Shown here one piece after another: positions 7,105-54,485 of a DNA stretch of 64,000 bases. The DNA is taken from the NCBI GenBank assembly GCA_934101185.1, contig CAKOQD010000001.1:25681-89680 (forward strand), in the 5' to 3' direction. Source of the DNA: an uncultured Bacilli bacterium (lineage in GTDB: Bacteria; Bacillota_I; Bacilli_A; RF39; UBA660). The notes beneath the pieces were generated by a model. The model was not told where the DNA came from and did not search any database. It saw nothing but the letters and a program-made list of their open reading frames with translations. The translations under genes and the position numbers were made by a program. Every line of letters starts with the position of its first letter. Position 1 is the stretch's first letter.

Positions 7105-8082
7105 TTACTCTATTCCTTCTTTGAGTACATTAAGCTCTTCAAATGAAAGTCCAGTACATTCTGTAATAAGATCAAATGATAAGTTATTTTGAATCATCTT
7201 AAGAGCAGTTTCTCTTGCTTTTTCTAAAGCACCTTCTTCTCGGCCTTCTTCTCGGCCTTCTTCTCGACCAGATTCAAGCCCTTCATTATATGCTTCTTCT
7301 CTATTTTCTCTTATCTCTGCTCTTTTTAACATTTCATCATTTAACTCTTTGTCATACATTCCAATCACTTCGTCTTGCTCACTTGCATTTTTAGAATCTT
7401 CAATGTATTCTTTCATGATATCATCACCCTCACTTAACATATCAAGGACTTCATCATCCTCTTCATTAAAGATTAATAACAACTTTTCATAATCTTCAAG
7501 ACTATTATAATCTTTTTTTCTTATGTTAGGCAAGTAAATATTGATAATATGTACTTTATTTGTATATATTTCATCGATATTACTAAGATTGACTATCATA
7601 TACTCATCCAATACTTCATCTTTTCCTTCAAATGCAAAATTATTTACGTTGATTTGCAGACAGCTTTCATAATTGTCTTCATCTCCAATCTTCATTCCTC
7701 CACCATGAAGTCTAAACATATAATCAAGATTTCTTTCTAGATTAGTTCTTGTCTTATTCTTATTCATTTCAACATTTACTAATACCCCATCTATTCTACA
7801 TAGATAATCAACTGTCTTTCTAGATTTATCTGCTTTTTCTTCATCTACTGTTGGTTTAATTAATGTAGTATTTTCAAATATTTCATTATAATCTTGATTA
7901 AGTAAAAGAGCGATTAGATAACATCCGTACTTTTTTCTACTCTCATTAAAAAACATAGTTCTAAACATTACATCTGATACAAGTGGTATCCTGTAACCTT
8001 TATGTCTTGTTTTAAGTTTATATGCCATATCATTAGATACAGACTTATCTAAAAGAGCTAATTTATTACCTGTTAAGTTCAT
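7105..8082 (-). CDS. Rpn/YhgA-like PD-(D/E)XK nuclease family 'transposase'
   Basis: 'DYLCRIDGVLVNVEMNKNK' is a nuclease-core-like block. The C-terminal 'GREEGREEGREEGALEKARETALKMI...TGLSFEEL' tail is typical of this family. ATG at 8082 follows GGGAGGTG. Confidence 0.6.
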   Translation of the reverse strand: MNLTGNKLALLDKSVSNDMAYKLKTRHKGYRIPLVSDVMFRTMFFNESRKKYGCYLIALLLNQDYNEIFENTTLIKPTVDEEKADKSRKTVDYLCRIDGVLVNVEMNKNKTRTNLERNLDYMFRLHGGGMKIGDEDNYESCLQINVNNFAFEGKDEVLDEYMIVNLSNIDEIYTNKVHIINIYLPNIRKKDYNSLEDYEKLLLIFNEEDDEVLDMLSEGDDIMKEYIEDSKNASEQDEVIGMYDKELNDEMLKRAEIRENREEAYNEGLESGREEGREEGREEGALEKARETALKMIQNNLSFDLITECTGLSFEELNVLKEGIE

Positions 8083-15423: not shown

Positions 15424-15945
15424 GACCTTTTATTTTTAACTGTGTCTAAGCCTATGATAAGACCTATCATCTACATTAATTGTAATATATTTCTTGCTTT
15501 TTTTCAATACTATTTACTCATTATTTTCAACCAAATATTTTGTTATTCTTTCTTCATGAATATTAACTAAATCTTTTAATATATTCTTCCAATTATTTGT
15601 TCCTTTATTCCATTTTTCTTCTAATTGTATCGTCCATAAATAAAGCACTCTCATTAAACTTTCTTTATTTTCAAACATTCCCTTTCCATTTGTTACTCTT
15701 CTTAATGCCGAATTCAATGATTCTATTGGATTTGTTGTATATATTATCTTTCTTACATTTTCTGGCACTTCAAATAATGAATAAATATGTTCTATTGAAA
15801 GTTCTACTTGTTTTAAAACTATTTTTTTATCTTTATACTTACTCATAAACTCTTTATACATTTCTTTTGCTTCTTCTAAATTATTTGATTGATATATCTT
15901 TTTTAATTAATTAACCACGTCAAACACAGATAAGTGGAAAGGGTC
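15424..15945. mobile_element. decayed IS256-family element (internal deletion derivative) bounded by imperfect terminal inverted repeats
   Basis: GACCTTTTATTTTTAACTGTGTCT (15424 onward, plus strand) matches GACCCTTTCCACTTATCTGTGTTT (15945 downward, minus strand). It matches the copy at 25111 downward (GACCCTTTTCACTTAACTGTGTCT) even better. Only the C-terminal third of a transposase lies between the repeats. Confidence 0.6.
15514..15906 (-). pseudogene. IS256 (Mutator-type) transposase, C-terminal fragment
   Basis: 'LKKIYQSNNLEEAKEMY...IYTTNPIESLNSALRRVTNGKGMFENKESLMRVLYL' matches the conserved C-terminal block of IS256-family transposases. The N-terminal and DDE regions are missing. Confidence 0.7.
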
Positions 15946-15948
15946 AGC

Positions 15949-18603
15949 CTAAGCACCAGCTCCAAGAAGGACTGCACGAGCAGAGTTGCTAGCGTTCGCG
16001 CCACCTTCGCCGCGGTAGAAGTTGAAGGCGCCGGCGTTAGCACCATCAAAGTAGTAACCGCCGCGCACAACCCAAGGGTAGTTAGAGAACACGAAGCTGG
16101 CGTTATCTTCATACCAGTTAGCTGTTCCACCTGTAGGAGCCATTTCTTTTGTTGCATCTCCTAATTTTCCTCTTGTATATTCTGTCCCACTTGTTCCGTA
16201 ACTATATTTGTCATAATACTTAGCAGTAGGGAATGCGTATGTTCCTGTTAATGATGTGCCATCATATAAAATTCCTGTAAATGCTGAATTATATGATGAT
16301 ACATGTCCACTCATTTGTTGTCCATTTGGATATACCATATTACCCATCATATATTCATATGCTCCACCACTCATGTCATATACTCCATATACATTTCCTG
16401 TAGTACTTGCACTTTGTCCTAATGCTGTTGTATATGAATTACATGTTGCACCATTTGATGTAGATCCTTCACTTTGTGGTCCACATCCTGTTGTATATGT
16501 ATTTGCACTATTTATTGCTACTTCTTTATTTATTCCATATTTACTATGTGACAAGTATACTACTGCTCCCCATTCTATATTCTTCATCATATGAGCTTCA
16601 TCAGTTGTTGCAAATCCATATTGGTTTCCTGATTCATTCATCTTTTGGATTCCATTAAAGAATGTTCCTACTTGTGCTCCTCTCCATGATGTTACATTGG
16701 GTAATATTCTCGGTCTTATTGTTTGTAAGTTACATCCTGAACCTACTGCTACATTTTTTGATACTGTACAACTAGTATCACTTGATACTTCAAACTTACC
16801 TACCCAGATTCCTGTTAATTCTTCATTTTTTTCTCTTACGTTGTTATCATTCTTATCCCACCAGAATGCTGGATGAGTATATGTAGAAGTTCCTGCTTTT
16901 AATCCTCCATTTATACTATCAGTACATGTTTCACTTGTACTACTAGTCCCTGTTACTGCATCAGTACACTTTATTGTACCAGTACTTGCTGTACTACTTT
17001 CAAACTTTATTTGTATTTCTTCTGGTGTATTTGTATTTAAATAAGTATAAGTATACCTTGGTACCCATACCCACATAGTATTAATACCATCCATTGGTAT
17101 CTCAGTACCAGCCTCTGCATTAAGTAAATCACTACGAGTACCAGCACTAACCATCTTATACTCATCAACCTTAGTAATAGTATTAGAAGCACTAACTATC
17201 TTATAAACACTAGTACAAGAAGTATCAGATCCATTAGGACACACATACTTACCAACTAAACTACTAGATATTGCACTACTAGTAGGACTAACCAAATCAT
17301 ACTTATTAGTACTAGTATTATAATTAATACCACTTCCAACTTTAGTACTATAAACAGTAGATGTTGTCTCACCACTTGCAGTCCAATTCTGACCAGATGT
17401 ACCACCAGCAGTAGCACTATCAGTATAAGTTACATGAGAATTACTAGGATAAGTAAAAGTATCCAAAACACCATTATCATTATTTTTATTGACACTACTA
17501 TCTTTTGCATACTTAACAGTAATTAAATAAACATCTCCAACTGCAGCAGTGTCTGAATAAGTATTACTATTGGTACCACTTATAGCATTAGCAACAGTAG
17601 TAGCACTACCACCATTCTTTGCAACTGTAACAGTCAATTTATCATAACTTGCCTCACTAGATACAGTAGCTTTAAATCCAAAAGTACCAGCAGTATTAAT
17701 ATTAACAGTTATTTTTGACATACTATTAGCACTATTAATATTATAACCACCACTTGTAAAAGAAGTATAAGTCTTATACTGATTAGAAGTACCAGAAATA
17801 GAAACCGTCTTATTACTTGTAACATCTTCCTTTTTAATATTCTCATCAACAGTCACAGCATTAGCCCACATCTTTTTATCATAATCATACCATTTATTAT
17901 TACTATCAATATTATTTACATCTGCTTTCTTCCATACATCCTTAGTGCTATCATAATAAACTGGTATCATATTACTAGATAATACTGGTTCATTTGCACC
18001 ACTATTATCTAAATTACCTACAATTTCACTAAAATACTGCTCAGCCTCAAGCTTCAACTTTAAAAATACTTGTTGTTCAGATATCTCATCTAAATTAGCA
18101 TCTTCACTAATCCATAATCTTAATTTATATGTGTCTTTTTTACCTGTTCTTAATTCTTTTTCATTTAATAAATCATCTAATTCTGACAATGTAAGTGGTC
18201 CAATTTCTTTACCATTTACCTCTAAACCTATCTTAATTAATCCTTTATCTAACAAAGTTCCAGTATAAGACGCTTTACTTGCCTCATCATCTATTAATAA
18301 AACTTTATACATTGCATTAGCACTACCAGTATTCTCTACCGTAAAACTATAAACATCTTCCTGAAGCAGTCCATCAACATCAGACATAGAACTAAGTCCT
18401 AAATCTATACCAGTTGATGGTTCAGTAAGAACAACTTCTAAACTACCAAGTTTAACTATTTGATTGTTTGAATCAGTAGTAGTCCCTGAAAATATCGCAT
18501 AAGACTGACCTACTAAAATAAGACAAAGCCCAATCAAACCTACACCAAATAATATAACTGATAATTTTGTTTTTCTATTCAAACTTAAAAATCTATCAAT
18601 CAT
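15949..18603 (-). CDS. secreted protein with TasA-type N-terminus, central beta-rich insert and C-terminal FGE-sulfatase/C-type-lectin-like domain carrying VR1 (DGR target-like)
   Basis: The FGE-like blocks are 'GIWVGKFEVS', 'HMMKNIEWGAVVYLSHS', 'GNVYGVYDMSGGAYEYMMGN' and 'PWVVRGG'. The N-terminus has a TM helix followed by 'GQSYAIFSG...LGSLEVVL'. The likely start is ATG at 18603 after GAGGAT; the track start at 18630 is a TTG. Confidence 0.8.
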   Translation of the reverse strand: MIDRFLSLNRKTKLSVILFGVGLIGLCLILVGQSYAIFSGTTTDSNNQIVKLGSLEVVLTEPSTGIDLGLSSMSDVDGLLQEDVYSFTVENTGSANAMYKVLLIDDEASKASYTGTLLDKGLIKIGLEVNGKEIGPLTLSELDDLLNEKELRTGKKDTYKLRLWISEDANLDEISEQQVFLKLKLEAEQYFSEIVGNLDNSGANEPVLSSNMIPVYYDSTKDVWKKADVNNIDSNNKWYDYDKKMWANAVTVDENIKKEDVTSNKTVSISGTSNQYKTYTSFTSGGYNINSANSMSKITVNINTAGTFGFKATVSSEASYDKLTVTVAKNGGSATTVANAISGTNSNTYSDTAAVGDVYLITVKYAKDSSVNKNNDNGVLDTFTYPSNSHVTYTDSATAGGTSGQNWTASGETTSTVYSTKVGSGINYNTSTNKYDLVSPTSSAISSSLVGKYVCPNGSDTSCTSVYKIVSASNTITKVDEYKMVSAGTRSDLLNAEAGTEIPMDGINTMWVWVPRYTYTYLNTNTPEEIQIKFESSTASTGTIKCTDAVTGTSSTSETCTDSINGGLKAGTSTYTHPAFWWDKNDNNVREKNEELTGIWVGKFEVSSDTSCTVSKNVAVGSGCNLQTIRPRILPNVTSWRGAQVGTFFNGIQKMNESGNQYGFATTDEAHMMKNIEWGAVVYLSHSKYGINKEVAINSANTYTTGCGPQSEGSTSNGATCNSYTTALGQSASTTGNVYGVYDMSGGAYEYMMGNMVYPNGQQMSGHVSSYNSAFTGILYDGTSLTGTYAFPTAKYYDKYSYGTSGTEYTRGKLGDATKEMAPTGGTANWYEDNASFVFSNYPWVVRGGYYFDGANAGAFNFYRGEGGANASNSARAVLLGAGA
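15952..16119 (-). other. DGR-type variable region VR1 (3' end of 15949-18603)
   Basis: The patch is about 55-60% G+C by eye. It encodes NWYEDNASFVFSNYPWVVRGGYYFDGANAGAFNFYRGEGGANASNSARAVLLGAGA. Its differences from VR3 follow an NNC-codon pattern (see findings). Confidence 0.7.
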
Positions 18604-18702
18604 AATATCATCCTCTATCGTTACAATCAATACTATTATCTAATATATATGATACCACATTTAATAATTCAAAACAAGAAAAAAAGACAAAGTATTAAAA
18701 CT

Positions 18703-23940: not shown

Positions 23941-24013
23941 TTAGTGAACGGATGTGAACGGTACTGAACGCTAGTGAACGGTACTGAACGCTAGTGAACG
24001 GTACTGAACGCTA
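23941..24013. repeat. phased tandem repeat: TGAACG x7 at exact 10-bp spacing (20-bp unit GTGAACGGTACTGAACGCTA x3)
   Basis: Read directly from the sequence: TGAACG ends every printed 10-nt block from 23941 to 24010. The array is GC-richer than its flanks and lies about 75 nt upstream of the tex start. Confidence 0.9.
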
Positions 24014-24096
24014 GTAACTAACCACCTTAAGAAGATCAAAGTATAATAAAAGAACTTAGTTTGGTGAAACACAAGTTCTTCTATATAAAATAACAC

Positions 24097-24367: not shown

Positions 24368-24991
24368 CTAAATCACTTTTAATATTTCCTTTAAATATAA
24401 TAATATTGCAAAATCAGAAAAATCAGAAGTTACTCTTTTTCTTTTTGATATTATAACCGGATCAAATGTCCCTTTCCTATCTCTTGGCATATCTATTGTT
24501 ATTTCTCCTGAACTTGTTTTTATTTTCTTTCCTTTTGATGAATGTCCATTTTTCTTATTCGTTATTTCTTCTTTTGTTTCTAATGTATACAATCTTTTTA
24601 TCTCTTCAGGCATTTTATTTTTATATGTATCTGCAAAATAAGGAAATGTTTTATCTATTAGTTTAAATAAATCTGGCATTACCTTTACTCCTTGAAAAGT
24701 CAATTGTGCCGCTCTTTTTCCTTTTTCTTCTCCAAGTGTTATATAAAGCACTTTTTCTGTTCCCCTTCTTGATATATTTTTAAATTGTTGCATCCAAAAG
24801 TCAGTATCATAATTTACATCTATACCATATGTTAAAAATCTTCTTTTACCTTCAATCGTTATTCCTATAAAAGTATACATGTCTCTTGTTCTAACCCTTC
24901 CTTCGACTTCAAGTTGTACTGGTGTCTTTATCGTATAAATCACCACATACATCCTATCTAACTCTCTATATTTTAGTTTCTTTAATTCCAT
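24368..24991 (-). pseudogene. scrambled or degenerate IS256-family transposase remnant
   Basis: Residues 1-140 resemble the central DDE region ('GRVRTRDMYTFIGITIEGKRRFLTYGI...FWMQQFKNISRRG'), but the Asp positions are not conserved. They are followed by an N-terminal-type block ('IDMPRDRKGTFDPVIISKRKR'). This order is impossible for an intact gene. The likely start is MELKK at 24991 after GGAGGGAGG. Confidence 0.55.
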
Positions 24992-25010
24992 TTTCTTTTC
25001 CTCCCTCCAT

Positions 25011-25043
25011 AAAAAAAACTTAATCATTTTTTAGATGATTAAG
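25011..25043 (-). terminator. intrinsic terminator after the 25119-27824 gene
   Basis: CTTAATCAT / ATGATTAAG 9-bp stem followed by T8 on the minus strand. One arm is duplicated at 25050-25060. Confidence 0.6.
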
Positions 25044-25071: not shown

Positions 25072-25111
25072 ATTAATTAACCACGTCAGACACAGTTAAG
25101 TGAAAAGGGTC
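25072..25111. mobile_element. IS256-type terminal inverted-repeat copy abutting VR2
   Basis: The minus strand reads GACCCTTTTCACTTAACTGTGTCTGACGTGGTTAATTAATTAA. This is near-identical to the repeat at 15945-15905 and inverted relative to the one at 15424-15447. Confidence 0.55.
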
Positions 25112-25118
25112 GACTTCG

Positions 25119-27824
25119 TCAGTCCAGAACACCAAGCACGGCACGAGCAGAGTAGCTAGAGTCCGCGTGACCATCGAATCTGTCGTAGGAGAACGCGCCG
25201 GCTTTAGCACCACTGCCACAGACCCCACCACGGAAGAACCAAGGGGCGGAACGGCTAGGAAAGGCAACGTAATCTCCATACCATGAAGTAAAGTCAGATG
25301 AAACTGGAGCCATTTCTTTCGTTGCATCTCCTAGTTTTCCTCTTGTATATTCTGTATCTCTTGTTCCATAACTATATTTATCATAATATCTCTTACTTGG
25401 GAATGCATATGTCCCTGTAAATGATGTATTATCATTTCCTAAGTATCCAGTAAATGCTGAGTTATATCTACTATCTGTTGAATCACCACTCATTTGTTGT
25501 CCATTACTCCATACCATGTTACCCATCATATATTCAAGTGCTCCACCATTCATGTCATATACTCCATATACATTTCCTGTAGTACTTGCACTTTGTCCTA
25601 ATGTTGTTGTATATGAATTGCATGTTGCACCACTACTTGTTGAACCTGCACTTTGTGGTCCACATCCTGTTGTAAGTGTATTTGCACTATTTATTGCTAC
25701 TTCTTTATTTATTCCATATTTACTATGTGATAAATATGTTACTGCTCCCCATTCCATATTCTTCATCATATGTGTTTCATCAGTTGTTGCAAACCCATAT
25801 TGGTTTCCTGTTGCACTCATCTTTTGTATTCCATTAAAGAATGTTCCTACTTGTGCTCCTGTCCATGATGTTACATTTGGTTTTATTAATGGTCTTATTG
25901 TTTGTAAGTTACATCTTGAACCTACTGCTACATCATTTGATGCTGTACAACTAGTATCGCTTGATACTTCAAACTTACCTACCCAGATTCCTGTTAATTC
26001 TTCTCCGGTTTCTCTTACGTTGTTATCATTCTTATCCCACCAGAATGCTGGATGGGTATAAGTAGAAGTTCCTGCAACTAATCCATTATTTGTTGCATCA
26101 GTACATGTTTCACTTGTACTTGATGTTCCAGTAACATTATCAGTACATTTTATTGTACCAGTACTTTCTGTACCTTTTTCAAACTTAATCTTTATTTCTT
26201 GTGGTGTATTTGTATTTAAATATGTATAAGTATATCTTGGTACCCATACCCACATTGTATTAATTGCATCCATTGATATTTCAGTACCAACTTTTGAATT
26301 AATTAAATCATTACGTGTTACGGTCTTACTTTTATACTCATCAACCTTTGTAATACTACTAGAAGCAGTAACTATTTTATAAGGTGTAGTACAAGACAAA
26401 TCAGAACCAGTAGGACAAACAAACTTACCTACCAAAGAACTAGATACAGAAGACAAACTAATATTTTTAAGATCATATTTACTTGTAGAACTATTATAAG
26501 AAATAGAACTTCCTACTAAAACACCAGTACCACCAGTAATTGCTCCACTAGCAGTCCAATCTTGTCCAGAAGTACCACCAGCAGTAGCACTATCAGTAAA
26601 AGTAACAACACTATTCGCAGGATACGTAAATGTATCTAAAATAGCATTATCATTATAAGTATTACCACTACCATCTTTAGTATATTGAGCAGTTATAACA
26701 TAAACATCTCCAACTGCTGCAGCATCAGAATAAGTTTTACTAACATTATTACCACTTATTGCATTCGCAACAGTAGTAGCACTACCACTATTTTTACTAA
26801 CAGTAACAGTTAATTTATCCCAATTAGCTTCACTTGAAACAGTAGCCTTAAATCCAAAAGTACCAGCAGTCTTAATATTAACAGTTATCTTAGTATAACT
26901 CTTAGCATTATCAATATTATAACCCCCACTAGTAAAAGTAGAAGGAGGAACTGAAGCAATAGTTTTATTAGAAATAGAAACACTCTTATTCTTTGTAATA
27001 TCATCAGCTCTACTTGAAGAAACAACAGTTACTGCATTAGCCCACATCTTGTTATCATAATCATACCATTTATTAGCTTCTTTAGCATTATTACTATCAG
27101 CTTTCTTCCAACTATCACTAGTACTATCATAATAAACTGGTATCATATTTGATGTAAGTTCTGGTGCATTTGCTCCACTTGTATCTAATTTGCCTTCAGT
27201 AGTTTGCTCACTATATAATTGAATCTTATAACTCATTATAGTATTTTTATTTTTAACATTATAACTATTCGGAGTATCATAATCCAACCATAATTTCAAT
27301 TTATAAGAACTACTAGCAGACCTCTCTAATAAACCAGAATCAAGAATTATATTACCATCACTATCAACTTTTACAACTTTAAAATCTTCTCCATCTTTAC
27401 TTATACCAGCTTTAACATATTGAGCAGGAATACAAACATCAGCATTAACCGAAGAATCTCCTACTGTATAAGAATTACCAACAGTACAACTATTAATAAG
27501 AGACAATTTATATTTAGCATTAATACTACCAGTATTCTTTAATGTAAAATCATAAGTAGTACTATCACTAAGAGCCACATCATCCGGAGTAGGAATAGCA
27601 TTATTAACACTAATAACTGGAGTAGTATTTTCTAATGTTATTACCAAACTACCTGCACTAATAGTATTAATAGACTGAGTATAAACACTTTTAAATATAA
27701 AAGCATAAGATCCTCCGACAAATATAAATAATATAGAAATAATACCCAATAAGAAACTAATCTTAACACCAGGATTATCCTTATATTTTACCTTTAACTT
27801 ATCAAACTTATTAAAAAAATTCAT
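25119..27824 (-). CDS. secreted protein with TasA-type N-terminus, central insert and FGE/C-type-lectin-like C-terminal domain carrying VR2 (DGR target-like)
   Basis: 901 aa; paralog of 15949-18603, sharing 'KWYDYDNKMWANAVTV', 'NTMWVWVPRYTYTYLNTNTP' and 'GNVYGVYDMNGGALEYMMGN'. Confidence 0.8.
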   Translation of the reverse strand: MNFFNKFDKLKVKYKDNPGVKISFLLGIISILFIFVGGSYAFIFKSVYTQSINTISAGSLVITLENTTPVISVNNAIPTPDDVALSDSTTYDFTLKNTGSINAKYKLSLINSCTVGNSYTVGDSSVNADVCIPAQYVKAGISKDGEDFKVVKVDSDGNIILDSGLLERSASSSYKLKLWLDYDTPNSYNVKNKNTIMSYKIQLYSEQTTEGKLDTSGANAPELTSNMIPVYYDSTSDSWKKADSNNAKEANKWYDYDNKMWANAVTVVSSSRADDITKNKSVSISNKTIASVPPSTFTSGGYNIDNAKSYTKITVNIKTAGTFGFKATVSSEANWDKLTVTVSKNSGSATTVANAISGNNVSKTYSDAAAVGDVYVITAQYTKDGSGNTYNDNAILDTFTYPANSVVTFTDSATAGGTSGQDWTASGAITGGTGVLVGSSISYNSSTSKYDLKNISLSSVSSSLVGKFVCPTGSDLSCTTPYKIVTASSSITKVDEYKSKTVTRNDLINSKVGTEISMDAINTMWVWVPRYTYTYLNTNTPQEIKIKFEKGTESTGTIKCTDNVTGTSSTSETCTDATNNGLVAGTSTYTHPAFWWDKNDNNVRETGEELTGIWVGKFEVSSDTSCTASNDVAVGSRCNLQTIRPLIKPNVTSWTGAQVGTFFNGIQKMSATGNQYGFATTDETHMMKNMEWGAVTYLSHSKYGINKEVAINSANTLTTGCGPQSAGSTSSGATCNSYTTTLGQSASTTGNVYGVYDMNGGALEYMMGNMVWSNGQQMSGDSTDSRYNSAFTGYLGNDNTSFTGTYAFPSKRYYDKYSYGTRDTEYTRGKLGDATKEMAPVSSDFTSWYGDYVAFPSRSAPWFFRGGVCGSGAKAGAFSYDRFDGHADSSYSARAVLGVLD
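25122..25283 (-). other. DGR-type variable region VR2 (3' end of 25119-27824)
   Basis: GC-rich patch encoding WYGDYVAFPSRSAPWFFRGGVCGSGAKAGAFSYDRFDGHADSSYSARAVLGVLD. It keeps the same invariant skeleton (W, PW, RGG, GA.AGAF, SARAV) as VR1 and VR3. Confidence 0.65.
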
Positions 27825-54308: not shown

Positions 54309-54485
54309 TATAATTTGCTATTCAATCAACACGATGAAACCAAAAATGAAAAGGAAAAGTACGAAAGTTGTAAAACATTTTTTTCCTTTCTTTCTATTTT
54401 GCTGTGCCAGTTCTTTGAACTGGGTCAGTTTGGGAGAAAAAAAATAACAATTAGTTTATCATCTCCAAAGGAGCCACTGACTTCG

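Follow-up and report, generated by a model that had tools for sequence, protein, structure and literature searches.

The 64-kb stretch analyzed here (contig CAKOQD010000001.1 of assembly GCA_934101185.1, from an uncultured gut Bacilli bacterium; henceforth the window) carries three paralogous minus-strand genes, G1, G2, and G3, which end in the variable repeats VR1, VR2, and VR3, respectively, of a diversity-generating retroelement (DGR). With a probability of about 0.75, VR2 was last rewritten from a type-B template repeat (TR), whereas VR1 and VR3 are of type A, and was then cut off by an insertion sequence (IS) from the element downstream of it, so that it persists as a fossil of the type-B template. 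In this system, a reverse transcriptase (RT) copies the TR RNA into cDNA, misincorporating opposite adenines, and the cDNA replaces the 3' end of the target gene, so that the ligand-binding face of a domain with an FGE/C-type-lectin fold is varied. The lineage has encountered two templates with an identity of 80%; the core cassette is absent from the window, where a leader relic beside the VR3 gene is all that remains of it. An IS256-family element inserted 7 nt past the VR2 stop codon, splitting the inverted repeat ACTGAC-GAA-GTCAGT and removing the conserved downstream module, and this copy decayed afterwards.

Assignment of the three variable repeats to templates

Two types of TR, TR-A and TR-B, are present in related genomes (fetched loci are cited by L numbers). 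They are 80.4% identical, have the same flanks, and differ by a 6-nt indel near the 3' end; 24 differing positions without adenine in either TR serve as diagnostic sites. VR2 has the B state at 22 of these sites, the A state at none, and another base at 2. The distribution for VR3 is the reverse, with 23 A states, one B state, and no other base, and VR1 has 18 A states, 6 B states, and no other base. In the alignment of VR2 with TR-B (L012), 22 of 35 adenines but only 8 of 115 non-adenines are changed, with one 3-nt gap (Fisher p = 1.8e-11 on the alignment counts, 22/12 versus 8/105), whereas comparison with TR-A yields changes at 26 of 39 adenines and at 31 of 111 non-adenines. For VR3 and TR-A (L016), the respective values are 18/39 and 1/120, and for VR1 and TR-A they are 18/38 and 13/117. 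TR-VR mismatches that fall overwhelmingly at TR adenines characterize DGRs, and exactly this pattern is found for VR2 and TR-B, the TR being taken from related metagenome-assembled genomes (MAGs). When the complete TR-B cassette was compared with the window by blastn, the best match was the VR2 stretch (79% over 146 nt, E = 1.5e-31).

An earlier note on this DNA had proposed that no single TR accounts for all three VRs and that VR2 was written from a different one. A TR search allowing for several templates recovered both TR-A and TR-B and bore this out: TR-B gave rise to VR2, and TR-A to VR1 and VR3. The alternative offered in the same note, drift since homing stopped, covers at most 4–6 of the non-adenine changes in VR2. 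Two of the eight non-adenine differences from TR-B lie in the last six bases, and two others (CGT for GGT and GAT for AAC) disappear when the L028 allele, with AGT and AAT at these places, is used for the comparison. The four that are left over (GCT>GTT, AAC>AAA, TTC>TAC, and AAC>AGA) may have arisen by drift or come from a TR-B allele that was not sampled; similar residuals, of 6–8, are seen for other type-B VRs. The G1 orthologue in the L001 strain, which is 97.6% identical to the window, has a type-B VR; therefore, both template types circulate in this population.

The divergence of VR2 is confined to the variable repeat

VR2 is located at the extreme C-terminus of G2, ends at the stop codon, and encodes ...SWYGDYVAFPSRSAPWFFRGGVCGSGAKAGAFSYDRFDGHADSSYSARAVLGVLD, followed by the stop. 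All motifs of the invariant skeleton listed in the earlier note (W-Y-G-D, P-W, R-G-G, G-A-x-A-G-A-F, and S-A-R-A-V) are present in the translation, and every reported codon difference between VR2 and the other two VRs was found: VR1 and VR3 have GCC, TTC GTG, TCT, and GTT nTG CGC GGC GGT in common, and VR2 has GTT, TTT CCT, CGT, and TTC TTC CGT GGT GGG at those places. The observation that VR2 is 3 codons shorter than VR3 ahead of CTG GAC TGA also holds as far as the length is concerned, but not as a sign of decay, because TR-B itself is 2 codons shorter than TR-A there and the third gap is shared by the VR2-like alleles L033, L034, and L035, whose adenine-site content differs. The third missing codon is thus a trait of this target lineage and not the result of post-mortem decay.

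For a comparison with the remainder of the gene, the last 1.2 kb of G1, G2, and G3 were aligned, and each site was scored by the gene that is the odd one out. In 900 nt upstream of the VR (25401–26300), the numbers are similar for the three genes (G2 46, G1 49, and G3 44), whereas in the VR2 patch (25122–25283) G2 is the odd one out at 33 sites, compared with 6 for G1 and 13 for G3 (Fisher p = 2.4e-4, patch versus upstream). Correspondingly, the identity of G2 to G1 and G3 is about 90% upstream and drops to 56–60% inside the patch only, where G1 and G3 are still 82% identical. Uniform divergence of the whole gene, named in the earlier note as an observation that would refute its reading, is excluded because each gene is equally far from the other two in the part that precedes the VR; the excess divergence is restricted to VR2 itself.

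These data also bear on the possibility that VR2 goes back to the same template as VR1 and VR3 and came to differ by drift after homing had stopped. VR2 does have a few non-adenine differences from any known TR, as drift would leave behind. However, this explanation is highly improbable in view of the 31 non-adenine mismatches to TR-A, the absence of the A state from all 24 diagnostic sites together with the B state at 22, the recurrence of B states in independent VRs (L001 G1, L009, L013, and L033–L035), and the 900 nt upstream without excess divergence. The upstream divergence counts and the diagnostic sites together refute drift from a shared template.

Template repeats and retroelement cassettes in related genomes

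Within the window, a sensitive blastn search with each VR found the three VRs only, and tblastn detected no genes for RT, Avd, or the MutS-like protein (MSL). A degenerate pattern derived from the invariant core was therefore scanned over one genome per GTDB species, which yielded 13 loci in four MAGs of 'uncultured Bacilli' from human gut samples. Three of the 13 loci are non-coding, AAC-rich template repeats, two of them TR-B (L011 and L012) and one TR-A (L016). In L012 and L011, TR-B is followed by a spacer of about 200 nt and by genes for a 143-aa protein with a MutS_I domain, bAvd (E = 2e-21), and a 333-aa RT of the RVT_1 family; bAvd and the MutS_I protein also lie between TR and RT in related loci. 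The RT beside TR-B (L011, L012, and L019–L032) contains the motif IGNYTSQYFAN, with the DGR motif IGNYTSQ, and its homologues led to further TR-B copies (L019–L024) and to a TR-B variant (L028/L029). In L019, L020, and L034, a target gene with a VR is situated about 300 nt upstream of the TR, so that the full layout is target, about 300 nt, TR, spacer of about 200 nt, MSL, avd, RT.

TR-A of L016 stems from the same MAG as L012 (CAKOIB) and has the same leader and spacer as TR-B (L016:570–1143 versus L012:4716–5283). About 170 nt past TR-A, the L016 sequence changes into an unrelated membrane-protein gene, leaving an orphan TR without accessory genes or RT behind it. The two TRs of MAG CAKOIB could represent a second template that is served in trans or a bin in which two strains are mixed.

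In two further places, L025:1–300 and L034:2260–2450, a VR-like half is joined to a TR-like half: in L025 the target gene runs into the TR 3' flank, and in L034 the TR leader runs into a gene end encoding ...AVISNLN and a stop. Probably both joins arose by misassembly across the repeat, and L025 and the distal part of L034 were set aside as likely chimeras, although the joins may be real TR/VR recombinants. A scan of Joint Genome Institute (JGI) metagenomes for the TR 3' end gave one chance match in an unrelated gene, and a scan of viral contigs gave nothing.

The related genomes also permit a judgment on the view that the GC-rich patch is simply a conserved structural motif of a paralogous family and no product of a retroelement. 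The lack of a TR in the window would agree with it, but non-coding AAC-rich TR copies adjoin MSL-Avd-RT genes, and the substitutions are strongly adenine-specific. This view is barely conceivable, and we consider it refuted by the TRs of related genomes and the adenine-specific substitutions.

An IS256-family remnant interrupts the sequence downstream of VR2

The VR2 stop codon is followed by CGAAGTC (25118–25112) and then by GACCCTTTTCACTTAACTGTGTCTGACGTGG (25111–25081). The latter stretch belongs to a 31-nt repeat (GACCCTTTTCACTTAACTGTGTCT...) of which the window contains two copies, at 25111 and 15945, and shuffled sequences lead one to expect none. The two IS ends (25081–25111 and 15915–15945) differ by 3 mismatches, and they begin 7 nt past the stop codon of VR2 and 3 nt past that of VR1, respectively. 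On the G2 side, the adjacent open reading frame (ORF) at 24368..25027 matches both family models for the transposase, as is characteristic of IS256 elements: residues 102–213 correspond to positions 7–113 of the Pfam profile Transposase_mut (E = 7e-25), and residues 13–156 correspond to positions 107–251 of the NCBIfam model transpos_IS256 (E = 4e-23, with a score below the full-length cut-off, the ORF being fragmentary and scrambled). Neither a right IS end nor the AGTGGCTCC continuation was found downstream of the VR2 IS; the right end, the target duplication, and the original downstream sequence have been lost. The second copy, at the G1 stop codon, is a 551-nt insertion relative to L001 with internal deletion. 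Its transposase fragment covers Transposase_mut profile positions 294–378 of 379, and it is flanked by an imperfect 9-bp target duplication (GCTTAGGCT versus GCTTATAGG). A plasmid search with the IS remnant found nothing.

The sequence that was interrupted can be read from other VRs. VR2 and VR3 share the post-stop sequence CTGGACTGACGAAGTC, after which VR2 switches to GACCCTTTTCAC... where VR3 goes on with AGTGG. The junction at VR2, CGAAGTC/AGTGGCTCC, is thus interrupted by the left inverted repeat of the IS, whereas CGAAGTCAGTGGCTCC... is uninterrupted at VR3 and at the VR2-like alleles L033–L035. The sequence CTGGACTGA CGAAGTCAGT... is common to VR3, L033, L034, L035, and L019, and beyond it lies another small stem-loop region. 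The TR-VR homology ends at CTGGACT, and the 6-bp inverted repeat follows at VR3 and L033–L035 and is cut by the IS at VR2. In DNA folds, VR3 forms a 6-bp stem (−5.7 kcal/mol), and VR2 forms only an alternative 4-bp stem (−2.0 kcal/mol). Both statements of the earlier note about this site proved accurate: the IS-type repeat after VR2 is an IS256-family left terminal inverted repeat that splits a sequence intact elsewhere, and AGTGG at VR3 completes a 6-bp hairpin of which 3–4 bp were said to survive at VR2. No strain without the IS at the same G2 locus was found; all five G2 contigs read (5/5) carry it. In L036 (P0003), the one G2 allele with another VR, the downstream surroundings are different, and a recombinant or chimeric origin is possible.

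In phage BPP-1, retrohoming is efficient only when such a structure is present immediately after the VR (Guo et al., 2011, PMC3240598). By analogy, we infer that the 6-bp hairpin may have functional weight, and that loss of the structure 3' of VR2 would have made VR2 a poor or dead retrohoming target and, from then on, a type-B fossil.

The same IS ends or remnants were observed a few bases from VR stop codons in several other loci, L009:~7650–7700 (with a doubled end), L013:~1640–1700, L007, and L033, and also at the TR leader in L028/L029:1–100; in L028/L029 the IS end lies ahead of a transposase start, and in L009 it comes after the VR. The junctions between VR and IS read TAGGCT/GACCC, TGACGAAGTC/GACCC, TGACG/GACCC, and TGATGA/GACCC. 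IS ends lie 3–12 nt past VR stop codons at window G1, window G2, L009, and L013, and both copies of the IS in the window sit at VR ends. The position of a VR stop codon is, to our knowledge, not one that the IS256 family is known to prefer. The repeated junctions could be due to structure-targeted insertion or to co-duplication with the paralogues; that the element preferentially inserts at structured DNA just 3' of DGR VRs is a doubtful proposition. If it were true, a transposon would recognize the DGR target hairpin or a nicked intermediate and would repeatedly retire DGR targets.

Stasis of the variable repeats and loss of the cassette

The exact 901-aa G2 protein is encoded on 12 contigs from different samples, and the five contigs that were read (5/5) do not differ in their VR2 DNA. 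Ongoing diversification among close relatives, a further characteristic of DGRs, is not seen for VR2, which lies in a recently shared block. This block, from about 24.5 to 28.5 kb, shows zero differences to L001 and L002, whereas its flanks differ by 2–5%; it extends over the IS remnant and G2 into the 3' end of the neighbouring gene, including the GC-rich patch there. An identical block in divergent flanks implies that the block was recently transferred by recombination.

VR2 may thus have been written elsewhere: a paralogue or another strain could have donated either a C-terminal segment of type B or the entire G2 block through gene conversion or homologous recombination, with the IS attached already or acquired later. 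Exchange of C-terminal segments between paralogues does occur, as exemplified by the G2 allele P0003/L036, which has a different C-terminal segment of about 400 nt and a type-A VR, and the G1 of L001 differs from the window G1 over the whole C-terminal half; together with the identity of the 24.5–28.5 kb block in strains with 2–5% divergent flanks, this makes import a realistic possibility, albeit at clearly less than even odds. On the other hand, G2 is equidistant from G1 and G3 upstream, and no conversion tract ending at the VR is seen. Moreover, an imported segment would still be a TR-B product, so that import would change the place of writing and not the identity of VR2.

The other VRs are also almost invariant: the type-B VR of the L001-type G1 is likewise identical across 12 contigs, and in a strain that shares the G3 region, VR3 differs at one adenine-site base. 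Downstream of G3, both the window and this strain have only a relic of the TR leader in place of the TR cassette. The relic lies in a segment of 168 nt (54313–54480) between the VR3 stop and the next gene, which contains leader pieces and is missing from the closest GTDB MAG (L008). This segment is the scar of a deleted TR-MSL-avd-RT cassette.

Alternatively, VR2 might still be an active target, served by a TR-B and an RT elsewhere in the genome, with a dispensable small inverted repeat. Remote targets are common in DGRs, the evidence covers a 64-kb window of the genome, and the hairpin is off the canonical pattern. In addition, the type-B VRs of L009 and L013 likewise adjoin IS ends, although nearly all differences between the two fall on adenine sites. 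Nevertheless, an active VR2 is unlikely, as VR2 does not vary among the 12 contigs, which come from different samples, the window lacks genes for RT, Avd, and MSL, the leader relic marks a deleted cassette, and the strain sharing the relic differs in VR3 at one base only.

The interpretation of VR2 as an IS-damaged fossil of a type-B template has to be weighed against several observations. That VR2 is the same in different strains says little about inactivation, given the shared 24.5–28.5 kb block, and VR3 and the type-B VR1 allele are nearly static, too, which fits a general loss of the DGR core equally well as IS damage. The VR3 hairpin is not significant in comparison with shuffled sequences (z = −1.15; 25 of 200 shuffles fold as well), a consensus fold of the post-VR flanks revealed no supported pairs and no covariation, and with 6 bp, 50% GC, and a 3-nt loop the hairpin deviates from the published pattern of 7–10 GC-rich bp and a GRNA loop. 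The 4–6 non-adenine differences between VR2 and the nearest TR-B are unexplained. Finally, the template assignment rests on related MAGs, the window's own genome being seen as 64 kb only, and TR-A and TR-B are on separate contigs of one MAG that is possibly a strain mix. Most simply, the site by G3 has lost the DGR core, and little change now takes place in any of the three VRs, with an additional private lesion at VR2.

The target genes and their predicted fold

The G+C content of the window is about 28%, against which short GC-rich patches are conspicuous at about 16.0, 25.1, 28.1, and 54.5 kb. Three of these four patches are the ends of G1, G2, and G3, the C-terminal ~390 aa of which are 85–95% identical up to the last ~55 codons. 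G2 has a membrane or signal segment at its N-terminus. Its C-terminal ~390 aa are predicted to adopt the FGE-type C-type-lectin fold typical of DGR variable proteins. An AlphaFold2 model of this domain, computed from 75 aligned representatives of a family with over 3,000 members, had a predicted local distance difference test score (pLDDT) of 95.8 and superseded a useless model from a shallow alignment of close relatives (pLDDT 41). In a Foldseek search of the PDB with this model, TaqVP (5vf4) was the best match (E = 2e-8, probability 1.00), followed by PvdO, TvpA, EgtB, and FGE. At the sequence level, none of the target proteins had a Pfam or NCBIfam match above threshold, PDB searches with a sequence and with a profile gave no match at threshold, and weak, sub-threshold matches to the FGE-sulfatase Pfam family were obtained for G1, G3, and 9 of the 75 distant relatives. 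An exact look-up of the window G1 and G3 proteins returned no record.

The relatives of G2 are numerous, with 4,933 matches at E<=1e-5 in a collection clustered at 90% and 3,362 representatives after clustering at 50%, and none of them reaches the threshold for a Pfam annotation. Of the 75 sampled relatives, 16 have a prepilin-type N-terminal methylation motif, and some have a camelysin-type signal.

Table 1. Features of the window and the basis of their annotation.
Feature	Position	Strand	Remarks	Basis
G1	15949..18630	minus	carries VR1 at its end	paralogue of G2
G2, DGR target (variable protein) gene	25119..27824	minus	901 aa	ORF list; paralogy to G1 and G3
G3	54486..56975	minus	carries VR3 at its end	paralogue of G2
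VR1	15949..16103	minus	type A with some B-state sites near the 3' end	aligned to TR-A
VR2	25121..25270	minus	type B, 150 nt	aligned to TR-B of L012
VR3	54488..54646	minus	type A	aligned to TR-A of L016
Truncated inverted repeat at VR2	25112..25123	minus	5' arm ACTGAC (overlaps the TGA stop), loop GAA, only GTC of the 3' arm	
Sequence downstream of VR2 as it would read without the IS			AGTGGCTCCTTCGGGACAG	
Intact inverted repeat after VR3	54476..54490	minus	ACTGAC-GAA-GTCAGT	DNA fold, −5.7 kcal/mol
Second small hairpin	after the VR3 inverted repeat	minus	CTCC-TTT-GGAG	
IS256-family left terminal inverted repeat (IRL)	25081..25111	minus	begins 7 nt past the VR2 stop codon	
IS256-family transposase ORF	24368..25027	minus	IS remnant; scrambled and shortened, 219 aa	
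IS256-family copy at the G1 stop codon	15400..15950	minus	internally deleted	551-nt insertion relative to L001
IRL of the G1 copy	15915-15945			
C-terminal transposase fragment of the G1 copy	15514-15861		115 aa	
Right terminal inverted repeat (IRR) of the G1 copy	15424-15445			
Relic of the TR-preceding leader	54318..54368	minus		alignment to L012, L016, L028, and L034; blastn of the cassette, 26/26 and 26/28 nt

Other features of the window

The fourth GC-rich patch (28013–28200; G+C 46% versus 28%) forms the C-terminus of a 493-aa gene directly upstream of G2 (ORF 28013..29494, minus strand), which has a weak DUF6273 match and ends with ...NGYEHAVRPVLYL. This patch looks like a VR of a different target class; a matching TR was found neither in the window nor in any fetched locus. 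Between the IS remnant and the Tex gene, at ~23960–24030 (minus strand), there are three tandem 20-nt units (ACTAGCGTTCAGTACCGTTC) and a partial fourth.

Comparison with known systems

The contig combines three states of a DGR target, namely a fresh-looking type-A VR with an intact downstream element, a type-A VR with an IS at the stop codon, and a type-B VR with an IS in the inverted repeat, and it also bears the scar of a deleted TR-RT cassette. It thus documents naturally, and in a compact form, how templates turn over and targets are retired in a gut lineage; the large target family of this lineage, with several thousand relatives and no Pfam annotation, is otherwise undescribed. VR2 can be regarded as a natural 'mutant' for asking whether the post-VR inverted repeat matters in MSL-type DGRs. 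The general picture of how DGRs work is unchanged; this is a clear but ordinary case of the retirement of a hypermutation target.

A close parallel to the VRs is found in Treponema denticola, a species in which two TR types of about 81% identity occur and some strains keep VRs of a TR type whose cassette was lost (Nimkulrat et al., 2016, PMC4891356). Both systems share the two TR types (80.4% identity here), several paralogous targets with an FGE/C-type-lectin fold, and VRs that outlive the core cassette. They differ in the host, an uncultured gut Bacilli bacterium here, in the cassette, which has a MutS-like gene in addition to avd, and in the leftover VR, which in the window has a visible lesion, an IS end inside the post-VR sequence. 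DGRs with two TRs are also on record elsewhere (PMC6642488). The order TR, MutS-like gene (143 aa, MutS_I), Avd, and RT on one strand is that of the MSL-containing DGRs of architecture D (Wu et al., 2018, PMC5758913), but one related MAG has a second, orphan TR with leader and spacer in addition.

With respect to the target proteins, the predicted G2 domain resembles both TaqVP (5vf4) and TvpA (2y3c) according to Foldseek, with TaqVP as the better match, and the VR is at the extreme C-terminus. However, the sequence identity is only about 16%, the TM-score is about 0.42, and the N-terminal half of G2 is unrelated. As for the IS, it has in common with the IS256 family the Transposase_mut and NCBIfam IS256 matches of its transposase fragments, inverted terminal repeats of about 26 bp, and, for the VR1 copy, an imperfect target duplication of some 9 bp, whereas the decay of both window copies and their position 3–7 nt from VR stop codons set them apart. 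The inverted repeat lies directly 3' of the VR, as in BPP-1, and overlaps or abuts the stop codon; its 6-bp stem with 50% GC and 3-nt GAA loop contrasts with the GC-rich stems of 7–10 bp and the 4-nt GRNA loops of BPP-1 and its relatives. The present case adds an example from an uncultured gut Bacilli lineage with an MSL-type cassette, in which nothing is out of the ordinary except that the target-recognition end bears an IS lesion.

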